NCBI GenBank assembly: GCA_021413585.1 | Contig: JAIOQB010000278.1 | Location: forward strand, 783-64,782 | Reading direction: 5' to 3' | From: Planctomycetia bacterium | Lineage (GTDB): Bacteria; Planctomycetota; Planctomycetia; Pirellulales; UBA7805 | Length of the DNA: 64,000 nt | Shown: piece after piece, positions 20,793-43,223 of the stretch | How positions within the stretch are numbered: the stretch's first letter is position 1 | Layout of the letters: every line of letters starts with the position of its first letter | Made by a program: the position numbers and the translations under genes | The notes under the pieces: generated by a model | What the model was told of the DNA's origin: nothing | The model's database searches: none | The model's input: only the letters and a program-made list of their open reading frames with translations

Positions 20793-22679
20793 ATGCGACA
20801 ATTGTTATCTGGACATTATTGGGGGATCTTGGCGATTGCGGTGGGATTGTTCCTTCCCGCATCGATTTGCGCAGCCGCGGAACCAGCTGCGCCCACGACA
20901 AAAATCCCGCAATCCGTCGCCGAACTCTGGGCCGGCTACGATCCCCGCGCCGAGCCGCTTAACGTCGAAGTGCTGCGGGAATGGGTCAATAAGGGAATCG
21001 GCTATCGCTACCTGCGCTACACGGTCGGCACGTTTCGCGGCCAGCCCGCGCGTGTGGCGGCGGTGTATGCCGTGCCGCAGGGGGCGCGCAAGGTGCCGGG
21101 GCTGGTGCAGATTCATGGCGGGGGGCAGTCGGCCAATCTTAACGCCGTGCGGGCCAATGCCGAGCGAGGGTACGCCTGCATCTCGATCAACTGGCTGGGG
21201 AACCGGATCGACGGCATTCGCCCCGGGCTTCCCAATACCGACTGGGGAGCGGTCGACGCCACGCAGCGCGGCCACAACAGCGGCTTCACCAGCCTCGAGC
21301 CCGACGCCAAGACGATCGATTCCGTCACCTCGCCCAAAAACAGCAACTGGTATTCCGTCACCTCGCCCAAAAACAGCAACTGGTACCTGGGGATCATGGC
21401 GGCCCGCCGGGCACTGACGTTTCTCGAGCAGCAGCCGGAGGTCGACGGCCAGAAGCTTGGCGTCTACGGCCATTCGATGGGAGGGACTGTCACGGCCCAC
21501 GTGGCGGCGGTCGATCCGCGCGTGCGGGCCGCGGCGCCAACGTGCGGCGGTTTTGGCTCGCCCCGCGCGATACACCTCGATCCGCTGAGCCAGCGGACGA
21601 TCGCTGACGAGGCCCACTTGCCGCTGATCACCTGCCCGCTGCTGCTGGGGAGCCCGACGAACGATTTCAACGGCGCGATGGACGAGGCGGATCGGGCGAT
21701 CGACGTCGTCCACAGCAAAAGCATCCGCACTACGCGGCCGGTGCATCACGATCATCGCACCACCCCGGCCGAGGCGGTGTGCATTCCGCTGTGGTTCGAC
21801 GAGCAGTTGAAGGGGACGTTTCATTTCCCGCAGACACCCCGCATTGCGTGGAAGTTGCCGCAGCCCGACGGCGTGCCGCTGCTGGAGGTGACACCGGACA
21901 AATCGCGAAAGATCGTGGCGGTCGAATTGTTCTACAGCCGCGGCGACGATCCGCGGCGGCGGTTCTGGATCGCAGCGGCTGCCCACGAGTCGAACGGCAC
22001 CTGGACGGCCCAATGTCCCGTGCTCGACATGGACTCCACGCTCCGCGCGTTTGCCAACGTGACGTACGCGATCGACGCGCCAGTCACCACGGCGGAGTAC
22101 TACTATGAGTTCTTCACCAGCGACACGTTCAGCATTTCGTCGCGCATGCTCACCGCCACACCGGCGGAGTTGCGGGCCGCGGGGGTCAAGGGGACCGACG
22201 CGAAGTCGCTCTTGATCGACGACTTCGCCCGCGATTGGCAGGACTGGTGGATACCCTGGCGGGGATCGGTCGAGCGGTGGACTCGCAAGATCGGCGATCC
22301 AAAATGGCGAGGGCCGGATCAGGCGGTTCTGGAAGTCACCCTCAAATCAGCGCAAGACAACACGCTGGTGGTGGTGTTGAAGTCGAATCCGTGGTGGAAC
22401 CCAACTCACGTCCGACAGCCGCAAGAGTATTTTGCCACGATCAAACTGAAGGGCTCGCCCGACGGGCAAACGGTGCGAATACCGCTGAGCGACTTGCACA
22501 GCATTAACGACAGCCGGCCGCCAAACAATTGGACCGCGTTCGACGAGTTGGGCCTCGTGCCGTCATTCCATTACGAACGTGGCGGCAAAGCCCAGATCGC
22601 AGGGCAAACCTGGCGCGGACCGCCGCCCGTTTATAAGTCGATTGGCTGGTCGCTGCTGGCTGGCAATAAAACGCCTTAG
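20793..22679 (+). CDS. secreted alpha/beta hydrolase (acetylxylan-esterase/dienelactone-hydrolase-like) with C-terminal domain of unknown function
   Basis: Signal peptide. Nucleophile elbow GVYGHSMGG. The N-terminal region LWAGYDPRAEPLNVEVL resembles AXE1-type esterases. Confidence 0.65.
   Translation: MRQLLSGHYWGILAIAVGLFLPASICAAAEPAAPTTKIPQSVAELWAGYDPRAEPLNVEVLREWVNKGIGYRYLRYTVGTFRGQPARVAAVYAVPQGARKVPGLVQIHGGGQSANLNAVRANAERGYACISINWLGNRIDGIRPGLPNTDWGAVDATQRGHNSGFTSLEPDAKTIDSVTSPKNSNWYSVTSPKNSNWYLGIMAARRALTFLEQQPEVDGQKLGVYGHSMGGTVTAHVAAVDPRVRAAAPTCGGFGSPRAIHLDPLSQRTIADEAHLPLITCPLLLGSPTNDFNGAMDEADRAIDVVHSKSIRTTRPVHHDHRTTPAEAVCIPLWFDEQLKGTFHFPQTPRIAWKLPQPDGVPLLEVTPDKSRKIVAVELFYSRGDDPRRRFWIAAAAHESNGTWTAQCPVLDMDSTLRAFANVTYAIDAPVTTAEYYYEFFTSDTFSISSRMLTATPAELRAAGVKGTDAKSLLIDDFARDWQDWWIPWRGSVERWTRKIGDPKWRGPDQAVLEVTLKSAQDNTLVVVLKSNPWWNPTHVRQPQEYFATIKLKGSPDGQTVRIPLSDLHSINDSRPPNNWTAFDELGLVPSFHYERGGKAQIAGQTWRGPPPVYKSIGWSLLAGNKTP
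21321..21386 (+). repeat. in-frame 33-bp tandem duplication inside the hydrolase gene
   Basis: tccgtcacctcgcccaaaaacagcaactggtat (21321-21353) is followed directly by the same 33-mer ending in c (21354-21386). It encodes SVTSPKNSNWY twice. Confidence 0.95.
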
Positions 22680-25600
22680 CTCTGCCGGACCTGGCGGCGA
22701 CGCAGGCCGAACCAGGCCAGGCCGATCAGGCCGATCAGACCCAGGGCCCAAGTGCTCGGCTCGGGTATGCTCGTCCCCTCCAGCAGCGGGATGATTTCCA
22801 ACGAAGAGAAATCGCTATTGTGGTCGAGGACGGCCCACACTTTGTGGGCGACGGCGTCGTAACCGTAAGCACCCAAGGTGAGCAGGCTGGCGTTGGAGGC
22901 TTGGTAGCTACCCTGGTAGTCCAACAGGGCGGTATCGGTCGTGTTGACGCCATGGTTCCCTTCGTTGGCCAACTTCCAGATGCCGCCGTCGAGCCACGCC
23001 AGGTAAATGTCGGTGGCATTGTTCGCCAGCGGGCCGACGGTCATTTCAAACACGAAGACCGTGCTGTCCGTGCCGGTTAGCTTGACCACGTCGCTCACCA
23101 ACTGGGCGGAGTCACCGGAGGCCGCGAAGCCGTTGGCTTCGGGAGTCGTGCGGTTGCGCCACGTCATTTCAACGATCGTGTCGTCGCCACTGGTGTTCGT
23201 GCCGTCCACCAACTTTGCGACGGAGGCCAGGGCCTTGTCGCTCTTGCCGTTGAGCCCGGCGTACGATCCGCCGTCGGTCACGTCGGCGGTGCCGTTGCCC
23301 ACGCCGTTGGTGACGGTGTGGCCAAGGTTCCAGGTGAGTGGCCCCAGGTCCTGGTTTGTGGCTCCGGCCAGTGCCTGATCGTTCTCCAAGGCAATGGTCA
23401 ACTCGCCGACAAGGCTTTGGCCGTTGAGCAGCCCTGCGTCGCTAAAGTTGACTTTCGCCAAGGGGGAGGTGCCGGCACCGGCCGCGATGGAACTGCCGAC
23501 TTGCAGAGAGTTGTGAAGCGTCCAATGCGGGCTGAGCGTGATCGAGTCCACATAGGCCGAGGCCCGCAGCGGCGTGGCCGAGGCGTTCTGGATCGACACC
23601 AGCGAGCCGCTGTCGAGCGTGATGTTCGTGTTGGCGGACAACTGGGCCGCGGCGTACACGTTGGCCGAGACGGCCAGGTTCTGCGTCGCCAGATCGGTGC
23701 CCCCCGCGAGGTTCTGATCTTCCACGTCGTAGCCGTAGTTGGCCGAGTAATTGCCCGCGGCCGAGGTGACCAGGCCGATCGAGTTGCTCAGTGATCCATT
23801 GGCCGCGATGGTGCCGGTGGAGTTGCCCGCGCGAGTGAGCGTGGCCGTGTCGCCGCTGCCGTTGACGCCGGTCAGCACCAGGTTGGCCCGATTGGCACCG
23901 ACGTTTTGCAGATTCACGTTAACCGCGCTGACCGAGGCGCCGGCCAGCACGTTGCCGAAGTTGACCGTCGTTTGGCTCAGCGACGGGCCGGCGTGATCGA
24001 GCAGCGTTCCCTGGATCGTGGTGGTGAGGCTGGCCAATCCACTGGCCCCCGCCAGCGACTGGCGGTCGCCGGCGCTGAATGTCACCGTGTTGCTGAAGCT
24101 GCCGGCCGTGTTGCCGACGTTAAACGTCGCGGTGTACGACTGCGAGGCCGCGCCCCCGTCGATGCCGCCGATGAACACTTGCCCCGGATCGCTGAGCGAA
24201 CCGGTGCCGATGCCCGGAGTGGCCTGCACCTGCAAGGCCGAAGCGGGCGAGCCGGCCGTGTTCGTCACACCGATCGTGGCCGACAACCCGGTGGTTCCTA
24301 CGATCGCAGTGAAGTTGTTGCCGGCGGTGACGGTGGCACTACCGACCGCGTGATTGAGCACGTTGCCGCTGGCGATGACCGACTGCGTGCCGACGTTGCT
24401 GCTGGCACCGGCCAGGGCCGAGTCGTCAGCGTAAGTCAGCGTGAGGTTTTCGCTGAAGCTTCCGGCCGCCTTGCCCGTGGCCAAGCTGGCCGAGATCAGG
24501 CTGCTGCCGCCAGCGGCGACACCCGAGGCATTGCCGAGCGACACCGAGTTCACCGGGCCGTCGTTGGTGGTCTTCAGATTGGCGCGGAACCCGGTGGCAT
24601 TGCTTACGCTGATCGAGTTGCTGCTGGTCACCGGAGCCGAGTAGCCTACGATCACGTTGGCGAACGAAAGCGTAGAGGCATCGACCGAACCGGCGGCATG
24701 GTCGTAAACATTGCCGGTGAGCGTTACGGCTTGCGTGCCGAGGTTCGAGCTGGCCCCCGCGATGGCCGAATCGTCGGCGTAGGTGAGCGTGATTCCCTGG
24801 CTATAGTTGCCGACTCCCTTGCCGGTGGCGAGGCTGCCGGTGACCGTGCCGTTGCCGTTCGCGGCCACGCCCGAGACGTTGTTCACTGACAGGCCGCCGA
24901 GCGGGCCATCGTTGGTGGTCTTCAGGTTCACGCGGAAGCCGGCCGCGTTGTTGACGGTCACCGAGTTGGTGCTGGTCTGGGCCGAGCCGTAGCCGACGAT
25001 CACGTCAGCGAAGTTCAGCGTGGTGCCGCCGACCGCCGAGCCAGAAGCGTGGTCGTACACGTTGCCGGTGACCGTCACCGCCTGGGTGCCGACATTGCTG
25101 CTGGCTCCGGCCAGAGCCGAGTCGTCAGCGTAAGTGAGCGTCAGCCCCTGGCTGTAGCTGCCGGCTCCCTTGCCGGTGGCGAGGCTGGCCGAGATCGAGC
25201 CGCTGTTGCCGGCCGTGATGCCCGAGACATTCCCCAGCGAGATCGAATTCTGTGGGCCATCGTTCGTGGTCTTCAGATTGACGCGGAAACCGCTGGCGTT
25301 GCTCACGCTGATGGAGTTCGTGCTGGCCAACGGCGAGGCGTAACCGACGAACGTGTCGGCGATGGTGAGCGTCGTGTCGTCGACCGAGCCCGAGGCGTGA
25401 TCGTACACCGTGCCAGTGATATTGGCCGTCACGCTCCCCAGAGCATTGTGTCCGGTGAGCAACTGGTCGTCGCCAGCGGTGAACGTGACTTGATTGCTAT
25501 ACGCTCCGACCGCGCCGGCGTTAAACGTCGCGTTGTAATTCTGACTGGCGCCTGGGGCCAGCAGCAGGGCACCTGGGTTGCTGATCGATCCGCTGGCGAT

Positions 25601-28600
25601 CGACGGCGCGGCGCTGACTTGCAGTCCGGCCAGATGGCCCGAGCCGTTGGCCAGATTCACCGTGGCCGAAAGTCCGGTCGCTCCGACGATGGCCGAGAAG
25701 CCGTCCCCGGCGGTAATCGTGGCCGTGGGGGCCGCGTGCCCCTTCACGTCGCCGGTCAGGTTGAGCGTCAGCGGCGTGGCGTTGAGCGTGGCTCCGGCCA
25801 GATCGGTCCGGTCGCCGATCCCCACGGTGTACGTGGCGCTCAGCGTGCCGACCGTGCCGGTGGACATCGAGGCGGTGAAGGCCTGGCTGCTGCCGGCGGC
25901 CAGGTTCGTGAAGTTGTTGACGCCTAGGTCCGTAGTCAACTCCGAAGTGTTCACACCGCTGGGCGTGATCGTGCCCCGGTTCAGTCCGGCGGTGTTAGCG
26001 CCGCTGAGATTGGCGATGTTGAAGCCGGCGGTTTGCGTCGAGGCGCCGGTGATCACAGTCCCCAGGTCCAGCGTCAGCGAATCGTTATTAACCGACGTGC
26101 TGTTGAACGAGCCGTTGGAGTGATTCAGCACGTTGCCGCTGACGTTGACCGTTTGCGAGCCAGTGATGCTGCTCGCTCCGGCCAAAGCCGAGTCGTCGGC
26201 ATAGACCAGCGAGATGTTCTGGCTGTAGCTTCCCACCCCCTTGCCGGTCGCCAGGCCCGCGGTCAGTGCGCCGCTGCCGCCCGCCGCCACACCGGCCACG
26301 TTGCTGAGCGACACGCCGCTGAGCGGCCCGGTGTTGGTGGTCTTCAGGTTCACGCGGAAGCCGGCGGCGTTGCTCACGTTGATCGCCGTGTTGCTGGTCA
26401 CCGGTGCCGAGTAGCCGACGATCACATCCTGCATCACCAATGACGCGGTATCGACCGAGCCGGACGAATGGTCGTAGACGTTGCTGTTGAGCGTGATGTT
26501 CTGCGTTCCCGTGTTGTTGCTCGCGCCGGCGATGGCAGAGTTGTCGGCGTACGTGAGCGCCAGGTTCTGGCTGTAGCTGCCCACCGCCTTGCCGGCGGCC
26601 ATGGTGCCGGTGATCGTGCCGTTGGAGTTGGCGGCCAGCGACGAAATGTTGGTCATCGAGAACCCGTTCTGCGGGCCGTTGTTCGTGGTCTTCAGGTTCA
26701 CGCGGAAGCCGGCGGCGTTGTTGATCGTTACCGCGTTGGCGCTGGACTGCGTTGAACCGTAGCCGACAATCACGTCGGTGAAGTTCAGCGTCGAGCCGCC
26801 GACGGTCGAGCCGGAGGCGTGCTCGTAGATGTTGCCGGTGACGGTGATCGTGTCGGTTCCCACGTTGTTGCTGGCTCCGACCAAGGACGAATCGTCGGCA
26901 TAGGTCAGCGTCACTCCCTGGCTGAAGCTGCCGGAACTCTTGCCGGTGGCCAGGCTGGCGGTGATCGGGGCGCTGGCGTTGGCCACGATGTTGGAAACAT
27001 TGCCCAGCGAAATCGAGTTCACCGGCCCGTTGTTGGTCGTCTTGAGATTGACCCGGAAGCCGGTCAGATTGTTCACGCTGATCGAGCCCGTGCTGGCGAC
27101 CGGTGATGCGTAGTCGACAAACACGTCGGGAATGACCAGCGTCGAGCCGCTGACAAACCCGCGAGCGTGATCGTAAACATTGCCGGTGATGAAAATCGAA
27201 GAAGTTCCCAAGCCGCTGCTCTGTGCTCCGGCCAGTGCCGAATCGTCGGCATAGGTGAGCGTGATGGCCGAGAGGAAATTGCTCACCCCCTTGCCGGTGG
27301 CCATCGTGGCGGTCAGCAACCCGCTGCTGCCGGCCGCGACGTTGGAGACGTTATTGAGCGAAATCGTGCCGTTGGGACCATTGTTGGTGGTCTTGAGATT
27401 CACACGGGCACCCGCCGCGTTGTTGACCGTCAGCGCGTTGCTGCTGGCCACCGGCGAGCTGTAACCGACGATCACGTCGGGGATGGTCAGCGTATCAGTG
27501 ACGACCGAACCGGAGGCATGGTCGTACACGTTATACGTCAGCGTTTGGTTGAGCGTGCTGAGCGCGTTGTGTCCGGCCAGACTCTGCGGATCGCCGGCGT
27601 CGAGGCCCACCGCCAGCGTTTTGCCAATGCCGGCGACGGCAGTGTTGAAGCCCGTGGCAGTGTAGGACGCCGAGTTGCCGGTGGTCACCACATTCGAGCC
27701 GGTGGTGCCGGTGAGGTGATTCAGGTTGGCGACATCCAGCGGAGCCGACGCGGTGCCGGGGTTCGACAAGCTCAGCGTGGCGGCAGACAGCGAGTTGCCT
27801 ACGATCACCGACTGGTTATTGCCGCTGGCGATGGTCAGCGTGGGAGCCGCATGGTCGTAAACATTGTACGTGACGGTCTGGCTCAGCGTGGTTAGGGCAT
27901 TCGCACCGGACAGGGTCTGCTGGTCCCCCGCCTTGAGGCTCACGGCCAGGGTCTTGCCGATGCCGGAGGTGGAGCTGTCCAGGGCAGTCGAAGTGTAGGT
28001 GCCCGAGCCGCCGGAAGCGACCACGCCCGAGCCGGTCGTGCCGGTCAGGTTGCTCAGCGTGTTGACATCGAGCGGGGCCGGCGCGGCGCCGGTGGTGTTC
28101 GCCAAGGTCAACGTGGCGTTGGCAAACGAGCCGCCGACGAAGCCCGATTGGTTGTTGCCGCTGGCGATGCTCAGCGTCGGGGTCGAATGGTTGTAGACGC
28201 TGTACGTGACATTCGTGCTGAGGTTGCTCAGGCCATTGTGGCCCGTGATGGTTTGCTGATCACCGGCATTGAGGCTGACCGACAGGGTCTTGTTGAGCCC
28301 CACCGTGTTGGTGATGAAGCCGGTGGCGGTGTAGCTGCCGGTGCCGCCCGAGGCGACTACGCCCGAACCGGTCGATCCGGTCAGATTAATCAGCGAATTG
28401 ACATCCAGCGGCGCCGGCGTCGACCCGGCCGTGTCGGCCAAGGCGACCGAGACCGCGGCGAGCGAGCCGTTGATGATCACCGACTGATTGTTGCCGCTGG
28501 CCACCGTGAGCGTGGGTGCCGAGTGGCCATACACATTGATCGTGCCGGTGGCGGACGCGGCATAGGCCGAACCGCGACCCGAGAGATTCGTGTCCTGCAC

Positions 28601-31600
28601 GGTGGCCGTGAAGGTTTGCGTTTGGCCGAGGCCCGCGGTGCTGGTGTTGAACGTGCCGGTGTAGCTCTGGCTGCCGTTGGCGGCGACCAGGGCGGCGCCG
28701 GTGCTGCCCGTCAGGTTGCTGGTGAGACTGTTCACGTCCAGGGCCGCGTTGTTGGCCCCCGCATTCGTCAGGCTCAGCCCCGCCGTGGCGGCGGTGGCAC
28801 CCACGATTACAGTTTGATTGTCGTTGGTGTTGAGTGTGAGCACGCCGTTGGAATGGGCGTAAACATTGTACGTGAAGTTGGCGGTCTTCGAGCTAAGTGC
28901 GCTGGCGCCAACGATCGTCTGCTGGTCGCCGGCCAAGAGGCTCGTGGCCAGCGTCTTGTTCAGGCCGACGGTGGTGGTATCGAAGCCAGTGGCGGTGTAC
29001 GTACCCGAGGCGCCGGAGGCGACCACGCCTGAGCCGGTCGTGCCGGTCAGGTTGCTGAGTGTATTGACATCCAACGGAGCCGGCGTGGTGCCGGCCGTGT
29101 TGGCCAGCGTGGTGGTAGCGGCGGCCAGGGTGCCGCCGGTGATGATCGACTGGTTGTTGCCGCCGGCGATGGTCAGCGTCGGGGCCGAGTGGTTGTAAAC
29201 GCTGTAGGTGAACGTTTGGTTCAACGTGCTCAAGGCGCTAGCGCCGGAGATCGTCTGTTGATCCCCCGCCTTGAGGCTCACCGCCAACGTCTTGTTGATC
29301 CCCACGGAGTTGGTCACAAAGCCGGAGGCGGTGTACGTGCCTGAAGCACCCGAGCCGACCGAGCTGGCGCCGCTTAAGTTGCTGAAGGTATTCACATCCA
29401 ACGGAGCGGGCGTCGTGCCGGCGGTGTTGGCCAACGTGGTCGTCGCCGCGGCGAGCGAATTGTTGATGATCACCGCCTGGTTGTTGCCGCCGGCGATGGT
29501 GAGCGTCGGGGCCGAGTGGTTGTAGACGTTATAGGTGAACGTCGTGCTCAGCGGGGTCAGTGCGTTGGCTCCCGTGATGGTCTGCTGATCCCCGGCGTTG
29601 AGGCCCACGACCAGCGTCTTGCCGATTCCGACTGAGCTGTTCACAAAACCGGTGGCGGTGTAGGTGCCAGTACCGGCGGCGGCGACGACGCCCGAGCCGG
29701 TGGTGCCGGTCAGGTTGCTTAGCGAGTTGACATCCAGCGGAGCCGACGTGCTGCCCGGATTGGACAGGCTGGCCGTGGCGGACGACAACGCCGTGTTGAC
29801 GATCACCGACTGGTTGTTGCCCGTGGCCACCGTCAGCGTTGGAGCCGAATGCGTGTAGACGTTGTAGGTGACCGTCTGGCTCAGCGTGCTCAGTGCATTG
29901 GCCCCAACAACCGTCTGCTGGTCCCCCGCCTTGAGGCTCACCGCCAACGTCTTGCCGATCCCGGCGGTGGAATTGTCGAGGGCGGACGAGGTGTAAGTGC
30001 CGGTGCCACCCGAGGCGACGACGCCCGAGCCGCTCGTGCCGGTCAGGTTGCTAAGCGTATTCACATCCAGCGGAGCGGGCGTGGTGCCCACGGTGTTCGA
30101 CAACGTGAACGTGGCGTTGGCAAAGCTGCCGCCGACAAAGCCCGATTGGTTATTGCCACTGGCAAAAGTCAGCGTCGGGGCCGAGTGGTTGTAGACGCTG
30201 TAAGTAAAGCTCGAGCTGAAGGGGCTCAAGGCGTTGGCGCCGGTGATCGTCTGCTGGTCGCCGGCATTGAGGCCGACGTTGAGCGTCTTGCCGATGCCTA
30301 CCGAGTTGGTCACAAAACCTGTCGCGGTGTACGTGCCCGACGCGCCGGAGCCAACGGTGCTGGCACCGGTCAGGTTGCTCAGCGAGTTGACGTCCAACGG
30401 GGCCGGAGTCGCGCCGGCGGTGTTCGCCAAGGTGACCGTGGCCGCGGCAAGCGAGTTGTTGATGATCACCGACTGGTTGTTGCCGCCGGCAATGTTGAAT
30501 GTCGGGGCCGAGTGATTGTAGACGTTGTAGGTGAAGCTGGTGTTCAGCGCGGCCAAGGCGTTATGGCCGATGACGGTTTGATCGTCGCCCGCAGTCAGGC
30601 TCACGGCCAGCGTCTTGCCGATGCCGACCGAGTTCGTCACAAAGCCCGTGGCGGTGTACGTGCCTGTGCCGCCGGCGGCCAACACGGCCGAGCCGGTCGC
30701 TCCGGTCAGGTTGGTCAGCGACGCGCCGACATCCAGCGCCGTCGAGCTGCTGCCAGGATTGGAGAGCGTGGCGGTGGCCGAGGTGAGCGAGTTATTGATG
30801 ATAATGGATTGATTGTTGCCGCTGGCCACGGTCAATGTCGGAGCGGTGTGGGAATAGACGTTGACGGTCCCGCCGGTGGTGGCGGTGGTCGTAATCGCGT
30901 TGAGGTCGGTATTCTTGATGCTCCAGGTCTTGCCCAGGCCGACCGCGCCGGCGGTGAACGTGCCACCGATGTTCGACGTGGAACCCCCGGCCACCGTCGA
31001 TCCGGACGAGGAGGTGAGGCTGCTGACCGTGCCGCCGGTGCCGCTGTTGTTGGCCAGCGCGACGGCTAGCGCGGTCGAGTTGGTCGGCGCGGTGTTGCTT
31101 AGGATCGCGCTAATGCTGGTGGTCGCGCCGGTGATGATGTTGATCGTGGCCGGGTTGGGAGAGGTCAAGGTTTGATCGGCCTTGTGTGTCAGGTCAATTT
31201 CCCCGTTGGCTCCGGTGATTACAGAGAGTGTGTAAGCGGAGTCGAGGCCGGTCACTGCGCCGAAACCGCCGTCGGATGCGAGGTTGCCGTTGCCGGTAAA
31301 CGTGATGCCGGTGGTGAAGCCGGCGATCTTGTACTTGCCGAGCGTGGGGCTGACCATGTTCAGCGCCAGCACGCTGGTGGCGCTGCTGGTGTTGAGCGTG
31401 CCGGTGACATTGAGCAAGTCGGTGTTGGCACCATTGATGTCAATATCCAGCACGCTGCCAGTGTTAAAGGTCGTGGTATTGCTGGTGGTATTAATACTAA
31501 AGGTGCCGATGTCGTTGATGCCCGGGGCAATGTGGGCACCGGCGGTTATGGAGAACGAGCTACCGGGCGTATACGTTCCCTTGCCGCCGAAAGTGCCGCC

Positions 31601-34600
31601 GGAAACCAACGTGATCCCCCGGGTAAAGGTGACCCCCGAGGCGACATCGAGTTCACCGCCACTGTTGACCGTAATGGTGCCGCTGCTCCCCAGCGCGCCG
31701 GCGTTGCCCACGACGAGGTTGCCCGCGTTGGCGTTGGTCGCCCCGGTGCGGCTGCTCGTGGCGTTTAAGGTCAAGACGTTGGTGCCAACCTTCGTCAGCG
31801 TATTGGAATTGGCCGTCAGACCTGCGGTCAGCGTGATGTCCCCCGTGCCGCCGATACTGGCTCCGCCCGTGCCGATCGTGACCACGCCCGAATAAGTTGC
31901 CGCCACGTCGCTGTTGGTGAGTGCTCCGTTCGAACTGACGCCCGTGCCGATGATGGACAGGGCTTCGGAAGTGCTGAGCGTGATGCCGTCCAGGTCGAGC
32001 GCTGCTCCGGTGGCGGTGACCGAGGTGCCGGTGGCCGTGGTGCCCAGCGGCGTGTTCGTGCCGTTGCCCGCCGCCCCCAGGGCCAGCGTGCCGGCGTTGA
32101 TCGTCGTGGCCCCAGTGTGGGTGCTGGTGACCGCGACCGTCAGCACACCGCTGCCGTCCTTGATCAACTGCGCCAAGCTGCCGGTGGTGATTCCCGTGGT
32201 GCTGATCGTGGTGTTGCCCGAACCGCCGACGGTCAGATCATTGCCGGTTCCGGTGATCCCGCCACTGAGAGTCAGCGTATTGGCATCGGAGTTGACGCGG
32301 CTGTCGGTGGCCAGGTTGACCGCGGTCGACCAGGAGTTGTCGCCGCTGATGTTGCGCAGGGCACCCGTAGTGCTCACGCCGGTTCCGTTGAGTGTTAGAG
32401 TTTCGCCGGTGACGGCGATGCCACCTTGAAGTTGCAAGGTGGCGCCGCTGGTCACCGACGTCCCGGCGGCAGTCGTCCCCAGCGCCGCGGCGTTCTGGAC
32501 GTTCAACGCGCCGGCGCTGATCGTGGTCGTGCCGGTGTAGTTGCTGGCGACCGCTAACGTCAGCGTGCCGTTGCCATCCTTGGTCAGCGTCCCGCCGGTC
32601 GAGGTGTTGATGCCGGTGGTTTGAACCGTCGTGTTGCCCGCCCCCCCCACCGTCAGGCCGAGGCCGGTGCCGGTGATGCCGCCGCTAAGCGTGAGCGTGC
32701 CGGCGTCGGAATTGATCCGGCTGGCGGTGCCGAGCGTCACAGCGCCCGCCCAGGAGTTGGTGCCGCTGATGTTGCGCATCGCGCCATCGGCGGAAACCCC
32801 CGTGCCGTTGAGCGTCAGCGCCTGGCCGCTGACTGCGATGCTGTTTTGAAGCTGCAGGGCGGCACCCGACGCCACCGACGTGCTGCCGGTCGTGCCCAAG
32901 GCCGTGGCATTCTGAATGTTCACCACGCCGTCGCTGATCGTCGTATTGCCGGTGTAGTTGCTCGTCGCGCTGATGGTCAGCGTGCCGTTGCCGTCCTTGG
33001 TCAGCGTGCCGCCGGTCGAGGTGTTGATGCCGTTGGTTTGAATCGTCGTGTCGCCGGCGCCACCGACCGACAAGGCGAGACCTGTCCCCGTGATTCCTCC
33101 GGTGATGGTCAGCGTGCCGGCGTCGGAATTGATACGGCTGGCGCTGCCGAGGACGACGCCGCCAGCCCAGGAATTGGTGCCGCTGATGTTGCGCAGCGCG
33201 CCGTCGGTGGCCACGCCCGTGCCGTTGAGCGTCAGCACTTCGGCGCCGACTGCGATTCCCCCCTGAACTTGCAAAGCGGCCCCGGCGGTGACCGACGTGC
33301 CCCCCGTGACCGGATCACCCAGCGCCGAGGAGTTTTGGATATTCAGCACGCCGGCGATGATCGAGGTGGCATTGTTGTAGATATTCGCACCGGAGAATAT
33401 CTGAGTGCCCGCCCCCGACTTGGTGATCCCGACATTGCCGAAGCTGCCGTCCTGGATGATGCCGCTGAATGTATTTGATCCACTGGCGACATTGATGGTC
33501 AGCAGGGTGTCGTTTCCGCTGGTGGCGCTGTCGTTTGTAACCGTCCCCGTGCCGGTCAGGCCGGCGATGGTCGCTTCGAACCCATCCGTGCGGAGGATGC
33601 CCCCTGTATTGATCGTGACGATGGAGGTGCTTGCAATCTGGTTATTAGAAGCCAAGAGAACGACATCCGTTCCACTGCCGTCCCCGATGGTCAGACTTCC
33701 GGCAACTGCCGTGACGTTGTCGCTCTTGTCGAGGACGAGCGTACCGGCGTTGACCGTGGTTGCTCCCGTGAACGTGTTGGCGGCGGTGCCGGAGAACGTC
33801 ATCGTGCCGGCGCCGGCCTTGATCAGGCTATTGGCGGTGGTGCCGTTGGAAATGACGCCGCCGATGGTGAGCGTGCCGGCATTGGCCGTCACTGTGCGGG
33901 AAGTTCCCGCCGCGGAGCCCAGCGAGACGGCCCCGGTCCCCAGGTTCAGATCGCTGCTGCCGGTGAACGCGAAGTCGCCGTTCCAGGTTTGGGCGTTATT
34001 GTTGGCCAGCGTTTTAGCACTGCCGCTGGTGTTATTGATCGTGCCGGCCGTGATCGTCAATGTGCTGGCGGTCGCGCCCAGGGCAGTCGTGCTGTTGATG
34101 TTCAATGTGCCCGTAGTGAGCGTAACGCCGCCGGTGAATGTGTTAGCCGAACCGGAGAGCGTCAGAGCGCTCGTGCCGCTATTTTGCACCACCGCCACGG
34201 TGCCGAGATTATTGGTAATGCTGCCGCTGAGCAGGACCGCGCCAGTACTGCCACCGAGATTGGTAATAGTCTTGGTGCCGGAAGATCCTGCGGAGATGCC
34301 ACCCGAAATCGTAAATGTGTCCGCATCGGCGTTGGCGATATCCAGGAAGCTCCCCTTAAGGAGAATCGGCGCCGAGATGGTGTCGCCATTGCTGCTGGAT
34401 TCCTGATTGATTTGCGCGTGCGAGGCATTGTTATCAAAAATCAACGAGGCGCCACCCGAGGCGGCAATGGTAAATGAATTAGTGTCATCCGTGTCGCCAA
34501 TATTCAGGATGCCAATGGTCCGCGAAGTAGTATCGATCGTGATCGTCGCGTTTGAACTGATAGCATTGTCGATGTTCGCAATATCACCGGCTGCGTTCGG

Positions 34601-34777
34601 GACGGAACTAAATCCCCAGTTGAAAGTGGAACTCCAATTACCACTCGTGGTACTCCAGGTTCGCGTTACAGCATGCGCAGTCATCGGCTCGGCCAGCAGT
34701 CCAACAATCACCAGCAGCATCCACGGAAGGTGGTAGATGCGGCTAAGGCTGCGGTGATTGGATTTTTTATTAGTCAT
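22676..34777 (-). CDS. giant (4033 aa) PEP-CTERM-anchored surface repeat protein with autotransporter-associated beta-strand (PATR) repeats
   Basis: ORF 22676..34936 trimmed to ATG 34777 (MTNKKSNHRSLSRIYHLPWMLLVIVGLLAEPMTAHA, GGAGAG upstream). PATR-type repeats (KDGNGTLTLAVASNYTGTTTISAGALNVQN) run over about 30880-34500. Ten ~110-aa repeats (VYNHSAPTLTIAGGNNQS...) cover about 27545-30880. About eleven ~117-aa repeats (GNVYDHASGS...VIVGY...NAAGFRVNLKTTNDGP...LTYADDSALAGAS) cover about 23650-27545. A unique C-terminal domain ends in a PEP-CTERM tail. Confidence 0.9.
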   Translation of the reverse strand: MTNKKSNHRSLSRIYHLPWMLLVIVGLLAEPMTAHAVTRTWSTTSGNWSSTFNWGFSSVPNAAGDIANIDNAISSNATITIDTTSRTIGILNIGDTDDTNSFTIAASGGASLIFDNNASHAQINQESSSNGDTISAPILLKGSFLDIANADADTFTISGGISAGSSGTKTITNLGGSTGAVLLSGSITNNLGTVAVVQNSGTSALTLSGSANTFTGGVTLTTGTLNINSTTALGATASTLTITAGTINNTSGSAKTLANNNAQTWNGDFAFTGSSDLNLGTGAVSLGSAAGTSRTVTANAGTLTIGGVISNGTTANSLIKAGAGTMTFSGTAANTFTGATTVNAGTLVLDKSDNVTAVAGSLTIGDGSGTDVVLLASNNQIASTSIVTINTGGILRTDGFEATIAGLTGTGTVTNDSATSGNDTLLTINVASGSNTFSGIIQDGSFGNVGITKSGAGTQIFSGANIYNNATSIIAGVLNIQNSSALGDPVTGGTSVTAGAALQVQGGIAVGAEVLTLNGTGVATDGALRNISGTNSWAGGVVLGSASRINSDAGTLTITGGITGTGLALSVGGAGDTTIQTNGINTSTGGTLTKDGNGTLTISATSNYTGNTTISDGVVNIQNATALGTTGSTSVASGAALQLQNSIAVSGQALTLNGTGVSADGAMRNISGTNSWAGAVTLGTASRINSDAGTLTLSGGITGTGLGLTVGGAGNTTVQTTGINTSTGGTLTKDGNGTLTLAVASNYTGTTTISAGALNVQNAAALGTTAAGTSVTSGATLQLQGGIAVTGETLTLNGTGVSTTGALRNISGDNSWSTAVNLATDSRVNSDANTLTLSGGITGTGNDLTVGGSGNTTISTTGITTGSLAQLIKDGSGVLTVAVTSTHTGATTINAGTLALGAAGNGTNTPLGTTATGTSVTATGAALDLDGITLSTSEALSIIGTGVSSNGALTNSDVAATYSGVVTIGTGGASIGGTGDITLTAGLTANSNTLTKVGTNVLTLNATSSRTGATNANAGNLVVGNAGALGSSGTITVNSGGELDVASGVTFTRGITLVSGGTFGGKGTYTPGSSFSITAGAHIAPGINDIGTFSINTTSNTTTFNTGSVLDIDINGANTDLLNVTGTLNTSSATSVLALNMVSPTLGKYKIAGFTTGITFTGNGNLASDGGFGAVTGLDSAYTLSVITGANGEIDLTHKADQTLTSPNPATINIITGATTSISAILSNTAPTNSTALAVALANNSGTGGTVSSLTSSSGSTVAGGSTSNIGGTFTAGAVGLGKTWSIKNTDLNAITTTATTGGTVNVYSHTAPTLTVASGNNQSIIINNSLTSATATLSNPGSSSTALDVGASLTNLTGATGSAVLAAGGTGTYTATGFVTNSVGIGKTLAVSLTAGDDQTVIGHNALAALNTSFTYNVYNHSAPTFNIAGGNNQSVIINNSLAAATVTLANTAGATPAPLDVNSLSNLTGASTVGSGASGTYTATGFVTNSVGIGKTLNVGLNAGDQQTITGANALSPFSSSFTYSVYNHSAPTLTFASGNNQSGFVGGSFANATFTLSNTVGTTPAPLDVNTLSNLTGTSGSGVVASGGTGTYTSSALDNSTAGIGKTLAVSLKAGDQQTVVGANALSTLSQTVTYNVYTHSAPTLTVATGNNQSVIVNTALSSATASLSNPGSTSAPLDVNSLSNLTGTTGSGVVAAAGTGTYTATGFVNSSVGIGKTLVVGLNAGDQQTITGANALTPLSTTFTYNVYNHSAPTLTIAGGNNQAVIINNSLAAATTTLANTAGTTPAPLDVNTFSNLSGASSVGSGASGTYTASGFVTNSVGINKTLAVSLKAGDQQTISGASALSTLNQTFTYSVYNHSAPTLTIAGGNNQSIITGGTLAAATTTLANTAGTTPAPLDVNTLSNLTGTTGSGVVASGASGTYTATGFDTTTVGLNKTLATSLLAGDQQTIVGASALSSKTANFTYNVYAHSNGVLTLNTNDNQTVIVGATAATAGLSLTNAGANNAALDVNSLTSNLTGSTGAALVAANGSQSYTGTFNTSTAGLGQTQTFTATVQDTNLSGRGSAYAASATGTINVYGHSAPTLTVASGNNQSVIINGSLAAVSVALADTAGSTPAPLDVNSLINLTGSTGSGVVASGGTGSYTATGFITNTVGLNKTLSVSLNAGDQQTITGHNGLSNLSTNVTYSVYNHSTPTLSIASGNNQSGFVGGSFANATLTLANTTGAAPAPLDVNTLSNLTGTTGSGVVASGGSGTYTSTALDSSTSGIGKTLAVSLKAGDQQTLSGANALTTLSQTVTYNVYDHAAPTLTIASGNNQSVIVGNSLSAATLSLSNPGTASAPLDVANLNHLTGTTGSNVVTTGNSASYTATGFNTAVAGIGKTLAVGLDAGDPQSLAGHNALSTLNQTLTYNVYDHASGSVVTDTLTIPDVIVGYSSPVASSNALTVNNAAGARVNLKTTNNGPNGTISLNNVSNVAAGSSGLLTATMATGKGVSNFLSAITLTYADDSALAGAQSSGLGTSSIFITGNVYDHARGFVSGSTLVIPDVFVDYASPVASTGSISVNNLTGFRVNLKTTNNGPVNSISLGNVSNIVANASAPITASLATGKSSGSFSQGVTLTYADDSSLVGASNNVGTDTITVTGNIYEHASGSTVGGSTLNFTDVIVGYGSTQSSANAVTINNAAGFRVNLKTTNNGPQNGFSMTNISSLAANSNGTITGTMAAGKAVGSYSQNLALTYADNSAIAGASNNTGTQNITLNSNVYDHSSGSVDTASLVMQDVIVGYSAPVTSNTAINVSNAAGFRVNLKTTNTGPLSGVSLSNVAGVAAGGSGALTAGLATGKGVGSYSQNISLVYADDSALAGASSITGSQTVNVSGNVLNHSNGSFNSTSVNNDSLTLDLGTVITGASTQTAGFNIANLSGANTAGLNRGTITPSGVNTSELTTDLGVNNFTNLAAGSSQAFTASMSTGTVGTLSATYTVGIGDRTDLAGATLNATPLTLNLTGDVKGHAAPTATITAGDGFSAIVGATGLSATVNLANGSGHLAGLQVSAAPSIASGSISNPGALLLAPGASQNYNATFNAGAVGAYSNQVTFTAGDDQLLTGHNALGSVTANITGTVYDHASGSVDDTTLTIADTFVGYASPLASTNSISVSNASGFRVNLKTTNDGPQNSISLGNVSGITAGNSGSISASLATGKGAGSYSQGLTLTYADDSALAGASSNVGTQAVTVTGNVYDHASGSAVGGTTLNFADVIVGYGSAQTSTNSVTVNNAAGFRVNLKTTNDGPLGGLSVNNVSGVAANGNGTVTGSLATGKGVGNYSQGITLTYADDSAIAGASSNLGTQAVTLTGNVYDHAAGSVDASTLSFANVIVGYSAPVTSSNSISVSNATGFRANLKTTNDGPVNSVSLGNASGVAAGGSSLISASLATGKAAGSFSENLTLTYADDSALAGASSNVGTQSVIASGNVLNHAVGSATVTAGNNFTAIVGTTGLSATIGVTNTAGSPASALQVQATPGIGTGSLSDPGQVFIGGIDGGAASQSYTATFNVGNTAGSFSNTVTFSAGDRQSLAGASGLASLTTTIQGTLLDHAGPSLSQTTVNFGNVLAGASVSAVNVNLQNVGANRANLVLTGVNGSGDTATLTRAGNSTGTIAANGSLSNSIGLVTSAAGNYSANYGYDVEDQNLAGGTDLATQNLAVSANVYAAAQLSANTNITLDSGSLVSIQNASATPLRASAYVDSITLSPHWTLHNSLQVGSSIAAGAGTSPLAKVNFSDAGLLNGQSLVGELTIALENDQALAGATNQDLGPLTWNLGHTVTNGVGNGTADVTDGGSYAGLNGKSDKALASVAKLVDGTNTSGDDTIVEMTWRNRTTPEANGFAASGDSAQLVSDVVKLTGTDSTVFVFEMTVGPLANNATDIYLAWLDGGIWKLANEGNHGVNTTDTALLDYQGSYQASNASLLTLGAYGYDAVAHKVWAVLDHNSDFSSLEIIPLLEGTSIPEPSTWALGLIGLIGLAWFGLRRRQVRQS
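22679..22768 (-). other. PEP-CTERM sorting signal
   Basis: C-terminal 30 aa IPEPSTWALGLIGLIGLAWFGLRRRQVRQS, comprising a PEP motif, a hydrophobic helix and an Arg cluster. Confidence 0.85.
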
Positions 34778-35133
34778 TCTTACTCTCCTGCCTGCGTTGA
34801 TCGGTCGCTTACGAAGCTTGCCCACATTCGTCGTATCCGCTCCGACCGCCAAACTTGTGCTGCTCGCCGTTCCGCAGTTCACCTCTAGCGCGGGCGGGGA
34901 GCCCGACAGCGGTGAGTGGAGTTGCCAGCGTGGCAACGTAAAAATGCACGGGGTGACCGCGCTCTCGCGTCATTCGCAAGGGCGCCGCCGGGTGTGCATT
35001 AGGTTGGGGTGGGGGGCGATTAGCGTTTCTCAAAGCGTTTCAATTGTCCGCAAAGTACTCGCCTGCTTTGAAGCCTATGATAAACAGATGCATAAACTAG
35101 TCAAGCTAAGTAGAATAAATAAGCTAACCATTT

Positions 35134-35190: not shown

Positions 35191-35451
35191 GAAGTAGCGC
35201 GGACCTCGCGTGAGAAAGAAAAACACCGTAAAAACAAGCGTTTTTCTGTACTTCGACGCAGCATCGAGGTCGTCAATGAAACGAAACTCGATGCAGCACG
35301 AACGGATGGTTGGTCGCGCCGCGACCAGAGTTGCCGGCTGAATCGACCCGCGATGGGCCCTGATAAAGGGCCCAAGAAAAATGAGCGGCGAAAAGGTAGG
35401 CAAGCAGTACTCACTGCTCAAACCACTCAAACCTCAACACCCGTTTTATCC

Positions 35452-36822
35452 TTACGCGCCAAAATACCCGCGCCACGCCAGGTCCAGCACTTCGTCGCTC
35501 AGCTCCAGCTGCCGATCGCGCAGGCGGCAGATGTCGCGGCAGCGTTCGATCAGATCGCGCGGCTCGCAGCAGCGCATCGACCGCTGCTCTGTTTGATAAC
35601 GGGCGAACAGCTTGCTCAACAACTCCGCCGGGACATCGAGTCCAAGTTGCGCCGCATAGCGGCGGAAGATTTCCGAATATCGCTCCGCGTCGGGATTGTC
35701 CAAGTGAACCCGATAGCCGATCCGCCGTAGGAACGCCGGGGTCATCACCTCCTGCGGATCGAGATTCGTCGACACCACCAGCAACTGCCGGAACGGGATC
35801 GCCACCTGCTGCCCCGTTTGCAGCGTGAGAAAATCGACCTGCCGTTCCAGCGGATGGATCCAGCGGTTGATCAACTGCTCGGGCGAAACGCGCTGGCAGC
35901 CAAAATCATCGAGCAGGAACGTGCCGCCGTTCGCCTTGACGTGCAATGGCGCTTCGCAAAAACCCTGGTTGTTGCTGAAGATCAGGTCCAGCGATTCCAA
36001 AGTCAGCTCGCCGCCAACCACAATAAACGGGCGGCGGACCCGCACCCAGCGCTGGTCGATCAATCGCGAAACATTGCTCGCCGACTCCAGTGGCGTCGGC
36101 TCGTGCACCGTCGGGTCGTAGATGCGGATGATGTTGTGATCGACCCCCAGGCAATGCGGAATCCACAGCGATCCGTCGACCGCATCGTGCAGTAGGTGCC
36201 CTAGCGTTGTCTTGCCGTTGCCCGGCGGGCCGTAGAGGAACAGGCTGCGCCGCGACAGGAGCGACAGGCCGACCACCTCCACCGTTTCCGACGACAAAGC
36301 CAATTCCGAAAGCGCGGTCGACACGCCGGCGAGCGTCGGCTCGGGCAGATGATCGAACTGCCAGCGCAGACTGGCGGCATAATCGGCCAGCGACACGGGG
36401 ACCGGCCCGATGTAGTTGGAAATCTCCAGCAGCCGCAGCGCCTGCTCGCGGCCGCGGTCCGTGATCGCCACATGGTGATTGAACACGCCCACCTGGCCGA
36501 GCAGCTCGACCAGATTGTCCGCCCGCAGCCGATCGAGAAGCTGCGACGTCAGGGCAGGGGGGAGGCAGAGCCGCTGCGATGCCCACTGCGTGGTGAACCG
36601 CGGCACGCTGTACGCCAGCTTCAGCGCCAGACCTTCCAGCACCGCCAGATCGATCCCCGTTTCGGCAAGATCCGAAACAGCCTGCGGCGCCGGGATGCCG
36701 CCGATATCGACCAGGCGATGATTGGGCGTCTGTGGCACGACGGGAGCCGGCACGACAGGTGTCGCGGCCGTCGCCGGCGCGGCCGTCCGCACGCTCGTTG
36801 ATTCTTGTTGGATCTTCAACAT
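35452..36822 (-). CDS. AAA+ ATPase of unknown function with N-terminal winged-helix-like region
   Basis: 456 aa. Walker A LFLYGPPGNGKTT, Walker B GGTFLLDDFG, sensor-1 LLVVSTNL, and Arg-rich AFLRRIGYRV. The N-terminal ~200 aa include LLDRLRADNLVELLG...VAITDRGRE. The start lies 60 bp downstream of the tadC stop on the same strand. Confidence 0.75.
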   Translation of the reverse strand: MLKIQQESTSVRTAAPATAATPVVPAPVVPQTPNHRLVDIGGIPAPQAVSDLAETGIDLAVLEGLALKLAYSVPRFTTQWASQRLCLPPALTSQLLDRLRADNLVELLGQVGVFNHHVAITDRGREQALRLLEISNYIGPVPVSLADYAASLRWQFDHLPEPTLAGVSTALSELALSSETVEVVGLSLLSRRSLFLYGPPGNGKTTLGHLLHDAVDGSLWIPHCLGVDHNIIRIYDPTVHEPTPLESASNVSRLIDQRWVRVRRPFIVVGGELTLESLDLIFSNNQGFCEAPLHVKANGGTFLLDDFGCQRVSPEQLINRWIHPLERQVDFLTLQTGQQVAIPFRQLLVVSTNLDPQEVMTPAFLRRIGYRVHLDNPDAERYSEIFRRYAAQLGLDVPAELLSKLFARYQTEQRSMRCCEPRDLIERCRDICRLRDRQLELSDEVLDLAWRGYFGA

Positions 36823-36882
36823 GCGGCGGATTGCAATTTGGACACGGTCAATCGTTTAGAGATTCGCGTTAACCGGCGGCGT

Positions 36883-37806
36883 TTAGTTCCAGCTTTGCAG
36901 CACTTCGAGAAACCGGATCAGGGCCGTGCCCATCATGATGATGTAGAGCGCAGGAAAAATACAAAGCACCGTGGGGAAGATCAGCTTCACCGGGGCTTTT
37001 TCCGCGAGTTCTTCGGCAAAGCGATAGCGCTTTTGCCGCAAGCTGTCGGCATGGACGCGCAGCGCTTTGGTGATGCTGGCGCCGAACCGCTCGGCCTGAA
37101 TGATGACGGAGGACAAGCCTCGCAATTCCTCGGCGTCGAAGCGGTCGGCGAATTGGCTCAGGGCCTCGCCCGTCGAGCGGCCCAGTTGAATCTCGCGCTG
37201 CACAATGGCCATTTCGGAAGCCAGCAGCGGATGGGCATCGTGCAATTCGCTGGCCACGCGGGAAAACGCCGCCGGCAAGCTCAAGCCCCCCTCCAGGCAA
37301 ATGACGATCACGTCCAAAGCGTCGGGGAGCGAGCGCCGCAGCACCTTCTGGCGCTTCGCCTTGCGTCCCTTCAGCCAGATCGTGGGGATGATCGTTCCCA
37401 ACAGACCGACAAACGTCCCGATCAAAATCGCAATAGGAAACGACAACAGTTGCAGTCCGAACAACGCCAAGCCCACCAGCATGGGAATGACCATGCAGAG
37501 AAACTTCACACCCAGGAAGATAGCGGACGAATGCTGTTGATACAGCCCCGCCTGCTGGAGCTGCCTCTTGAGCTTGCTGAGCTGGGCCTCGTCGTCGGGC
37601 ATCAGCACGGCGCCCATCCGCGGCAGGGCCGAGGTTTGCGACCGGCTGCTAATGCGCGTACTATTCTGCGGGCCGGGACGAACGACGTCCACCAACCGGT
37701 CAGCCACCGTGCGCTGCTTGTTGCCCAAGAGCATGGTGACCAGCAACACCATGCTGGACACAGCCGCGAACGTGGAGATCAGCAGTGGAAGATTGTCAAA
37801 GCTCAT
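36883..37806 (-). CDS. tadC: Tad pilus inner-membrane platform protein TadC (T2SS F family)
   Basis: 307 aa polytopic protein with the T2SF-domain pattern LPDALDVIVICLEGGLSLPAAF...EMAIVQREIQLGRS. Sits next to tadB and tadA. Confidence 0.85.
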   Translation of the reverse strand: MSFDNLPLLISTFAAVSSMVLLVTMLLGNKQRTVADRLVDVVRPGPQNSTRISSRSQTSALPRMGAVLMPDDEAQLSKLKRQLQQAGLYQQHSSAIFLGVKFLCMVIPMLVGLALFGLQLLSFPIAILIGTFVGLLGTIIPTIWLKGRKAKRQKVLRRSLPDALDVIVICLEGGLSLPAAFSRVASELHDAHPLLASEMAIVQREIQLGRSTGEALSQFADRFDAEELRGLSSVIIQAERFGASITKALRVHADSLRQKRYRFAEELAEKAPVKLIFPTVLCIFPALYIIMMGTALIRFLEVLQSWN

Positions 37807-37871
37807 GGTTCACCTGTCTTGTGCAAAGCCGCATGCTCATAGCTCAACGCTCACAACTCAAAACTTCCCGC

Positions 37872-38834: not shown

Positions 38835-38853
38835 GGCTGCACCTTTCGCAAAA

Positions 38854-40191
<1,338 letters not shown>

Positions 40192-40287
40192 CCTGCACCC
40201 TTATTTCTGCAAAGTCGTACGGCAAAGTTTTGTATTTATTTCTTGTGTGTGCGTGCGTGGCGATTTTCAACGAGGACATTGCGCCTG

Positions 40288-41484: not shown

Positions 41485-41553
41485 CGATTCGTTTCCTCAA
41501 GTACGCGGCGCTGCGTCACATCGCTCAAAGGCATCGTGGTTCGCTGCAGGGGT

Positions 41554-42480: not shown

Positions 42481-42580
42481 AGCATGCCTCACCGTAAAAA
42501 GAAGTTGCAGTGTGGGGAGCGGCCAGCGGCCGCGCACCGTAAGATTGCGGATCTCGTTCTATCGCCTGCCAGACTCTGTT

Positions 42581-43132: not shown

Positions 43133-43223
43133 GGAACGCGCTTCCTAACGAATCATTTGTCGCTAAACGACTTTTCTCAACGGCTTCTAATGCAGCGTGC
43201 AGCTATTGTCACCCACGGCCGCA

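Follow-up and report, generated by a model that had tools for sequence, protein, structure and literature searches.

A 64,000-nucleotide window of Planctomycetia DNA (GenBank assembly GCA_021413585.1, contig JAIOQB010000278.1, positions 783 to 64,782) carries a 12,102-bp gene at 22676-34777 whose 4033-amino-acid (aa) product we take, with a probability of roughly 0.75, to be a Sec-exported, exosortase-sorted giant surface fibre about 100 nm long, serving in adhesion or in the matrix and of the type found in Planctomycetota and the Planctomycetes-Verrucomicrobia-Chlamydiae (PVC) group. The gene lies on the minus strand, as do all of its parts described below. From the N-terminus to the C-terminus, the protein is built of a signal peptide, a region of autotransporter-associated beta-strand (PATR) repeats, a tandem array of about 22 beta-sandwich domains, all from a single ASH/PapD-like superfamily related to choice-of-anchor D, a conserved tail and a PEP-CTERM sorting signal. 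Without the signal peptide, the mature protein is about 389 kDa, with a pI of 4.6 and no cysteine at all, and Thr, Gly, Ala, Ser and Asn together make up 63% of the residues.

The evidence for export and sorting lies at the two ends of the protein. The N-terminus (aa 1-36; 34670..34777), read by eye from the translation with no predictor, is MTNKKSNHRSLSRIYHLPWMLLVIVGLLAEPMTAHA↓V, and it shows the features of a Sec-type signal peptide: a basic n-region, the hydrophobic stretch LPWMLLVIVGLLA and an AHA↓V cleavage motif. The C-terminus (aa 4003-4033; 22679..22771) reads IPEPSTW-ALGLIGLIGLAWFGL-RRRQVRQS. Both PF07589 (23.6 against a cut-off of 20.7, at aa 4003-4028) and TIGR02595 (18 against 16) score above their curated cut-offs, and AlphaFold2 predicts a helix at this place (model residues 181-204). 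With Pro-Glu-Pro, a hydrophobic helix and a basic cluster, and with a signal peptide at the other end, this is, judged on its sequence, a bona fide PEP-CTERM signal. Both the signal peptide and the PEP-CTERM had been proposed in a first-pass annotation made from the letters of the window, and both stood up to these analyses.

The beta-sandwich units were delimited by cutting the translation at a recurrent V-Y-x-H motif. This yielded 21 units over aa 1307-3710 (10 of class A, 7 canonical units of class B and 4 divergent ones), and one more divergent unit before the array (aa 1195-1306; 30860..31195; hhalign against the class A profile 70%, E 4e-5) brings the beta-sandwich domains to about 22 in all. 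The class A array (aa 1307-2416; 27530..30859) consists of ten units of 109-112 aa that start at aa 1307-2306 and are spaced 109-112 aa apart, the one at aa 1972 being of a divergent 'VYAHSNG' type; Tandem Repeats Finder (TRF) detects a period of 327 bp at 28899-30666. These units agree with the ten repeats of about 110 aa that the first-pass annotation had described. Its count of 'about eleven' repeats of about 117 aa had to be revised, as only seven units in that part are canonical, bearing the NLKTTN and YADDS motifs, and the other four are divergent. The canonical class B units measure 116-117 aa and fall into a first block of four (aa 2417-2882; 26132..27529) and a second block of three (aa 3124-3472; 24362..25408), with TRF periods of 348/351 bp at 24359-25419. 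Each unit of the second block pairs with a unit of the first (2534 with 3124, 2650 with 3240 and 2767 with 3357, numbered by their first residues) at 66-72% identity. The four divergent units within 23650-27545 measure 113-128 aa. A 128-aa unit that stands alone (aa 2883-3010; 25748..26131) and an A-like unit with 38% identity to class A (aa 3011-3123; 25409..25747) lie between the two B blocks; a second A-like unit, recognised by its alignment with class A (aa 3473-3591; 24005..24361), is 50% identical to the first, and the array ends with the unit nearest to choice-of-anchor D (aa 3592-3710; 23648..24004).

All of these units appear to be variants of a single domain. In a joint MAFFT alignment of all A and B units, H4, G36, G78, D91 and G97 are invariant, and hhalign links class A to a 50-sequence class B profile with 95.7% probability (E 1e-8), and the 3592-type unit to class B with 96.5% (E 8e-10) and to class A with 95.2%. 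By these alignments classes A and B and the divergent units are subfamilies of the same domain and are homologous, which leaves the protein with only two repeat regimes, one a presumed beta-helix and the other an array of beta-sandwiches. The 'three distinct repeat regimes' of the first-pass annotation are reduced accordingly, the ~110-aa and ~117-aa repeats having one fold (hhalign 95-96.5%). The AlphaFold2 model of the B unit (50 sequences) is an all-beta sandwich with a pLDDT of 96.2. When the model was compared with the PDB by Foldseek, the top 50 matches were dominated by ASH domains of the Hydin-type ciliary central apparatus, CEP192 ASH, MSP and PapD-like chaperones (TM 0.55-0.66, best E 3.7e-4), which places the predicted structure of the B unit in the ASH/PapD-like/MSP beta-sandwich fold; no sequence relative with a solved structure was significant for this unit.

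The relation to choice-of-anchor D is more distant. NF012200, the curated model of that family, gives 37.7 bits in 6 stretches over the whole protein, below its cut-off of 45. Single units reach 33.8 bits (unit 3592, E 3.7e-8), 21.8 bits (unit 2883, E 2e-4) and 19.4 bits (unit 3011), all under the cut-off, and the canonical A and B units have no match to it. The Pfam matches to PF22544 (HYDIN-like Ig; 16.7 bits in unit 3592 and 14.8 bits, against a gathering cut-off of 25.5) and PF15780 (ASH; 12.5 bits against 27) are confined to two divergent units and are all below threshold. The protein is therefore not a member of choice-of-anchor D at the curated cut-off, and of the first-pass description of a 'choice-of-anchor or PapD-like' repeat the part on the fold stands, by the B model, and the curated family assignment falls. 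The likeness to the superfamily of choice-of-anchor D, ASH, PapD, MSP and HYDIN consists in the predicted B fold, in the weak hidden Markov model matches of units 2883, 3011 and 3592, and in a domain that adjoins a C-terminal sorting signal; the difference is that no unit of the giant protein reaches the curated score.

N-terminal to the array lies the PATR region (aa 37-1194; 31196..34669), presumed to form a beta-helix head. PF12951 matches it in 7 stretches with 80.6 bits (cut-off 27), in accordance with the ~1200 aa of PATR repeats noted earlier. Core motifs found by a regular expression begin at aa 197, 318, 451, 592, 731 and 994, and a seventh core, LIKDGSGVLTV, was read from the translation at about aa 870. 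The region is rich in Thr (18.6%) and Gly (16.5%). Within it, three super-repeats of 139-141 aa each (aa 451-869; 32171..33427) were seen in the translation and by TRF, which gives a period of 417 bp with 2.3 copies and 78% matches at 32330-33300, as the first-pass annotation had also reported.

The distribution of these modules was determined by an exhaustive search of representatives together with a genome scan (word-indexed profiles yielded 2 proteins for the B unit and 12 for the tail). The exhaustive profile search with the B unit returned 113 clusters among 1.84 billion representatives, so the B subfamily is rare. The closest genomic homologue (locus L006), from a Planctomycetota metagenome-assembled genome (MAG), is a protein of 1790 aa with eight A units and no B units, and it is 67% identical to the giant protein over the last 323 aa. 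The full architecture recurs in homologues P0013 (2358 aa) and P0014 (1703 aa), which combine a signal peptide and PATR with 6-7 B units, one unit of the 3592 type, and the tail domain with its PEP-CTERM; PATR occurs together with PEP-CTERM also in P0007 and P0128. In P0020, a metagenomic fragment of 808 aa, the units alternate strictly as A-B-A-B-A-B, compared with blocks in the window; therefore, the subfamilies have been joined in different orders in different proteins. Beside the 1790-aa homologue, at 2850-4547 on the minus strand of L006, lies a gene for another PEP-CTERM protein, of 565 aa, which has a 'TVYDHS...' unit, and therefore these modules are common to paralogous PEP-CTERM proteins. 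The 463-aa protein P0001 (L002 10001-11392), 52% identical over the tail, lacks a signal peptide, and its start falls within a repeat-unit boundary (…LTGTVLNHSAPS); it resembles what would be left of a larger gene after truncation, or after collapse during assembly.

The C-terminal part, which the first-pass annotation had called a 'unique' domain of about 290 aa, proved to be conserved across the PVC group. It begins with a segment of about 120 aa (aa 3711-3830; 23288..23647), which precedes the tail domain in close relatives and is kept in L006, P0001, P0002 and others; a reading of this segment as a 23rd beta-sandwich was not supported, since hhalign relates it to the units at 2-3%. The tail domain itself, a pre-anchor domain of about 170 aa (aa 3831-4002; 22772..23287), carries the motifs GGSYAGL, MTWR, SDVV.L.G, FVFEMT, YLAWLD and VWAVLDHNSDF. 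No Pfam or NCBIfam model covers it. One strict peptide pattern found the domain at 77 loci of species-representative genomes, nearly all from Planctomycetota, Verrucomicrobiota, Lentisphaerota or Kiritimatiellota and often as several paralogues per genome. The proteins that carry it measure between ~220 and 2700 aa, those of ~460 aa being stand-alone proteins, and at most loci PEP-CTERM follows within a few residues. At six loci (L009, L011, L021, L029, L032 and L034), an extra conserved cytoplasmic tail with the ending ...APAILS[LF]PS..W..ARRAA lies beyond the PEP-CTERM helix and Arg cluster and may be a second C-terminal motif. At L058, L060, L064 (an Akkermansia muciniphila MAG) and L080, the tail domain has no PEP-CTERM after it. 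In Akkermansiaceae/Verrucomicrobiaceae, it is followed instead by ~130 further residues ending in ...TLFARLVVSSL, which points to another kind of anchoring or sorting end for this tail domain.

The AlphaFold2 model of the tail (26 sequences, pLDDT 91.5) shows a beta-rich domain followed by a membrane helix. Its best PDB matches are the ZU5 domains of ankyrin (3ud2 and 3f59), at a borderline E of 1.3e-3 and TM of 0.43-0.55, so that the predicted fold is weakly ZU5-like; the tail domain has no sequence relative with a solved structure, and no sequence similarity to ZU5. The last hairpin ahead of PEP is made by the most conserved tail motif, WAV[LV][DN]H[NTS][SG]xF; 25 of 27 homologues have its His, and the position of its Ser is occupied by Ser in 19 of 26 and by Gly in 6 of 26. 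ZU5 domains (ankyrin, UNC5, PIDD, and the FIIND of NLRP1 and CARD8) are eukaryotic and cytoplasmic. Besides the borderline fold match, the conserved His-x-Ser turn before the last strand recalls the H/S-F↓S autocleavage sites that some ZU5 domains carry (PMC3210808); the low TM, the lack of sequence similarity and the replacement of Ser by Gly are points of difference. It is quite unlikely, in our estimate, that the ~170-aa domain is a dedicated processing or docking module rather than a passive spacer. In one version of this idea, a ZU5-like cis-autoproteolytic domain may cut at the His-Asn↓Ser turn (aa 3986-3988), by analogy with GAIN/GPS or FIIND, and the last strand and membrane helix may then be held non-covalently. 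In another, the fold may be recognised by a PVC-type exosortase, by analogy with the type IX secretion system C-terminal domain.

Taken as a surface fibre, the giant protein would leave the cytoplasm through Sec and stay anchored in the inner membrane by its PEP-CTERM helix and Arg cluster until an exosortase encoded elsewhere cuts near PEP (aa 4005-4007); it would then reach the exopolysaccharide layer or the surface of the cell, as a fibre of ~100 nm. The tail domain would form the base, the ~22 beta-sandwich domains a stalk of ~80-90 nm and the PATR beta-helix a distal head of ~25 nm; these lengths are our own estimates, with each domain taken as ~4 nm and each helix rung as ~0.48 nm. A likely role, by analogy with other PEP-CTERM proteins, would be attachment, aggregation or the building of a biofilm matrix. 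Proteomics of Akkermansia has detected PEP-CTERM proteins, in outer-membrane fractions among others (PMC4960237), and floc, biofilm or motility phenotypes are lost in PEP-CTERM or exosortase mutants (PMC9850573, PMC12188702). Several points weigh against this interpretation. The beta-helix of the PATR region is presumed from family knowledge, the class A fold is predicted through the hhalign link to class B, and the adhesion or matrix role is suggested by analogy only. To our knowledge, it is unexplained for any PEP-CTERM protein how the outer membrane is crossed after exosortase action, and here the protein to be moved is ~390 kDa.

The gene itself is well defined. On the minus strand, an uninterrupted frame runs from 34936 to 22676, with 4086 codons from a TTG, and remains open for 12.26 kb; the ATG at 34777 gives the 4033-aa product, and a Shine-Dalgarno sequence, AGGAG (34785..34789), was read 7 nt before it. 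The G+C content at third codon positions (GC3) is 0.84 over the whole frame, similar to that of neighbouring genes. The giant open reading frame (ORF) is thus real, as a 12-kb open frame of this kind is not a chance product, and the gene call of the first-pass annotation stands with it. The giant protein and both flanking proteins have no exact match in the public gene index; the nearby GH95 gene is matched exactly on a 4.6-kb Logan contig (SRR15633504), which ends short of the giant gene. Upstream, an AT-rich spacer of 675 bp separates the gene from a tad locus. It contains a terminator-like hairpin after the upstream gene (35401-35420) and, in the AT-rich intergenic region, a sigma-70-like promoter candidate, TTGACT-16-TATCAT (35077..35104), which is a match to the consensus alone (10/12). 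The hairpin and the promoter-like site count for the giant gene being its own transcription unit. A riboswitch in the ~300-nt leader was considered and rejected, as a search against Rfam found no known RNA family there, the best hit being a chance-level purD match (E 0.12). Plus-strand GC skew is +0.07 to +0.13 over 24-32 kb and +0.05 over 32-34 kb, and AT skew is -0.13 to -0.22 across most of the giant gene (24001-34000 scanned); we would attribute these skews to the extreme Thr/Gly/Ala/Ser/Asn codon content of a minus-strand gene and not to replication.

At the other end, the TAA stop codon of the giant gene (22676..22678) overlaps the TAG stop (22677-22679, plus strand) of a convergent alpha/beta-hydrolase gene, the two codons sharing two bases within 22676-22679, and no intergenic room is left for a terminator between the two genes. 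The GH95 gene, too, lies on this side. Upstream lies a complete Tad/Flp pilus locus (35452-54665), mostly on the same strand as the giant gene, with genes for an AAA-like protein, TadC, TadB, CpaF, a CpaE-like protein, CpaB/RcpC, a prepilin peptidase, a TadG-VWA protein, two TadE proteins and a sigma-54 activator, and with the secretin CpaC and a TPR protein on the opposite strand. Four near-identical Flp pilins of 57 aa are encoded on the minus strand at 43224-43397, 43638-43811, 47814-47987 and ~48195-48368. No exosortase was found in the window when all ORFs with at least three hydrophobic segments were checked; these encode TadB, TadC, the prepilin peptidase, an Amt transporter and a DUF4118 protein. 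Likewise, no multi-pass membrane ORF recurs beside 82 related loci. The remark in the first-pass annotation that the sorting enzyme is not encoded here is thereby borne out. The absence of an exosortase from the window is expected, because PEP-CTERM proteins occur many per genome and are served by an unlinked exosortase (PMC1569441).

The relations among the units bear on how the length of the stalk changes. With the unit at aa 1972 excluded, class A units share 56-86% identity at the protein level and 64-82% at the DNA level; the excluded unit has 37-46% protein and 53-59% DNA identity to the other A units. Class B units are 66-77% identical in DNA, TRF reports 71-78% matches (the 417-bp period included), and the longest exact word common to any two units is 36 bp. 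The 'highly similar DNA repeats' of the first-pass annotation are not borne out by these values, and its claim that they are substrates for recombination is weak, since cross-species counterparts are closer than neighbours. Unit 1972 shares 83% identity with unit 584 of L006 but no more than 46% with any other unit of the window; L006 unit 1025 is matched by both unit 1528 (82% identity) and unit 2194 (79%), and L006 unit 694 by unit 1860 (80%). Since units of the window thus resemble specific L006 counterparts (77-83%) far more than their own neighbours, the subtypes are older than the split of the lineages and the array has not been homogenised. Duplications of blocks can be recognised in the window (the paired B triplets 2534/2650/2767 and 3124/3240/3357, unit 3011 with 3473, and unit 1528 with 2194 at 86% protein identity) and in L006 (694 with 1249 at 92% identity), and homologues range from 1703 to 4033 aa. 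Low DNA identity, the 36-bp limit on exact words and the orthology of subtypes therefore indicate that length shifts over evolutionary time and not rapidly; the stalk would change slowly between lineages by duplication and loss of unit blocks, with no fast switch.

These data also bear on other explanations of the gene. A rapidly length-variable contingency adhesin, in which frequent recombination makes repeat number differ among strains or subpopulations, would draw on the tandem arrays with 327-, 348/351- and 417-bp periods, on the wide differences in unit number among homologues (4033, 2358, 1790 and 1703 aa) and on block duplications such as 1528 with 2194 and L006 694 with 1249. We nevertheless consider it unlikely, as the DNA identity of the units is too low and their exact words too short, and as unit subtypes are kept across species, which speaks against concerted evolution or recent homogenisation. 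The same divergence bears on the chance that the gene is an assembly artefact or a pseudogene, with repeats collapsed or expanded or the ORF not expressed. Repeat-rich genes are frequently misassembled, and neither the exact protein nor its two neighbours are in the public gene index; however, repeats with exact words of no more than 36 bp are diverged enough for unambiguous assembly, the frame is open for 12.26 kb with its GC3 of 0.84, the ribosome-binding site is good, the product has both its signal peptide and an undamaged sorting signal, and the same architecture is found in homologues from independent genomes. This explanation is very improbable.

Just as improbable is a type V (autotransporter-like) passenger, which PATR might suggest, the PF12951 family being best known from autotransporter passengers. 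Pfam and NCBIfam scans found no autotransporter beta-barrel or other translocator domain at either end (E <= 0.1), so the protein is not a classical (type Va) autotransporter; the C-terminus is instead a PEP-CTERM above curated cut-offs, and proteins that combine PATR with PEP-CTERM occur among the homologues. That the protein is functionally linked to the neighbouring Tad/Flp pilus, perhaps as an adhesin regulated and acting together with the pili, is improbable to about the same degree as rapid length variation. The giant gene does lie directly downstream, on the same strand, of a complete tad locus (35452-52313) with four Flp pilins and a sigma-54 activator, and homologue P0013 is encoded near type IV pilus genes, PilMNO and a pair of T2SSE ATPase genes lying ~3 kb away. 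In between, however, lies the 675-bp spacer with its hairpin and promoter-like site; pilus genes are absent from the neighbourhoods of L006, the closest genomic homologue, and of P0001 and P0002, and PEP-CTERM sorting is independent of pilus machinery. The linkage was downgraded because synteny is not conserved, and the pilus neighbourhood is probably incidental.

RTX adhesins (MpIBP, LapA) and SiiE are likewise giant rod-like proteins of tandem Ig-like domains, and are substrates of type I secretion systems, with C-terminal RTX secretion signals and N-terminal retention. The exosortase-sorted fibre would share with them a long tandem beta-sandwich stalk that holds a distinct distal region off the cell. 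It would differ in being exported by Sec with a C-terminal PEP-CTERM, so that its polarity would be reversed, and Pfam and NCBIfam scans found no RTX or Ca-binding repeats in it.

A giant gene is reportedly one of more than 5 kb, by the definition of Reva and Tummler (2008). At 12.1 kb, the gene is far above this size and belongs among the planctomycetal giant genes, from which it shows no essential difference, its closest homologues being in Planctomycetota MAGs. Genes above 10 kb are common in Planctomycetes, up to 19 per genome, and encode mostly predicted surface proteins (Kohn et al. 2016, PMC5177795); because Planctomycetota carry many such genes, this one is ordinary in that respect. 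Its architecture is not described in the planctomycetal giant-gene literature covered. With the PATR PEP-CTERM proteins of PVC bacteria (Verrucomicrobium spinosum, Akkermansia; Haft et al. 2006), it has in common the signal peptide, PATR and the PEP, transmembrane and Arg elements, and it differs from them in its far larger size, in a ~22-domain stalk of two unannotated beta-sandwich subfamilies and in a ~170-aa pre-anchor domain. The combination of PATR with PEP-CTERM is thus a known PVC theme, of which the giant protein is a new and unusually large member. What is new at the level of curation are the A and B beta-sandwich subfamilies and the PVC-wide pre-anchor domain.

Overall, these results provide clean boundaries for two repeat subfamilies that are now labelled 'hypothetical' in PVC genomes, with a high-confidence predicted fold (class B having been modelled). 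They indicate that such arrays can be ancient and stable, and that tandem periodicity alone is a poor ground for assuming phase or length variation. The pre-anchor domain fused to PEP-CTERM is a widespread, unmodelled family fit for curation, and, as the mechanism of exosortase sorting is barely understood, it is a candidate for a role there.

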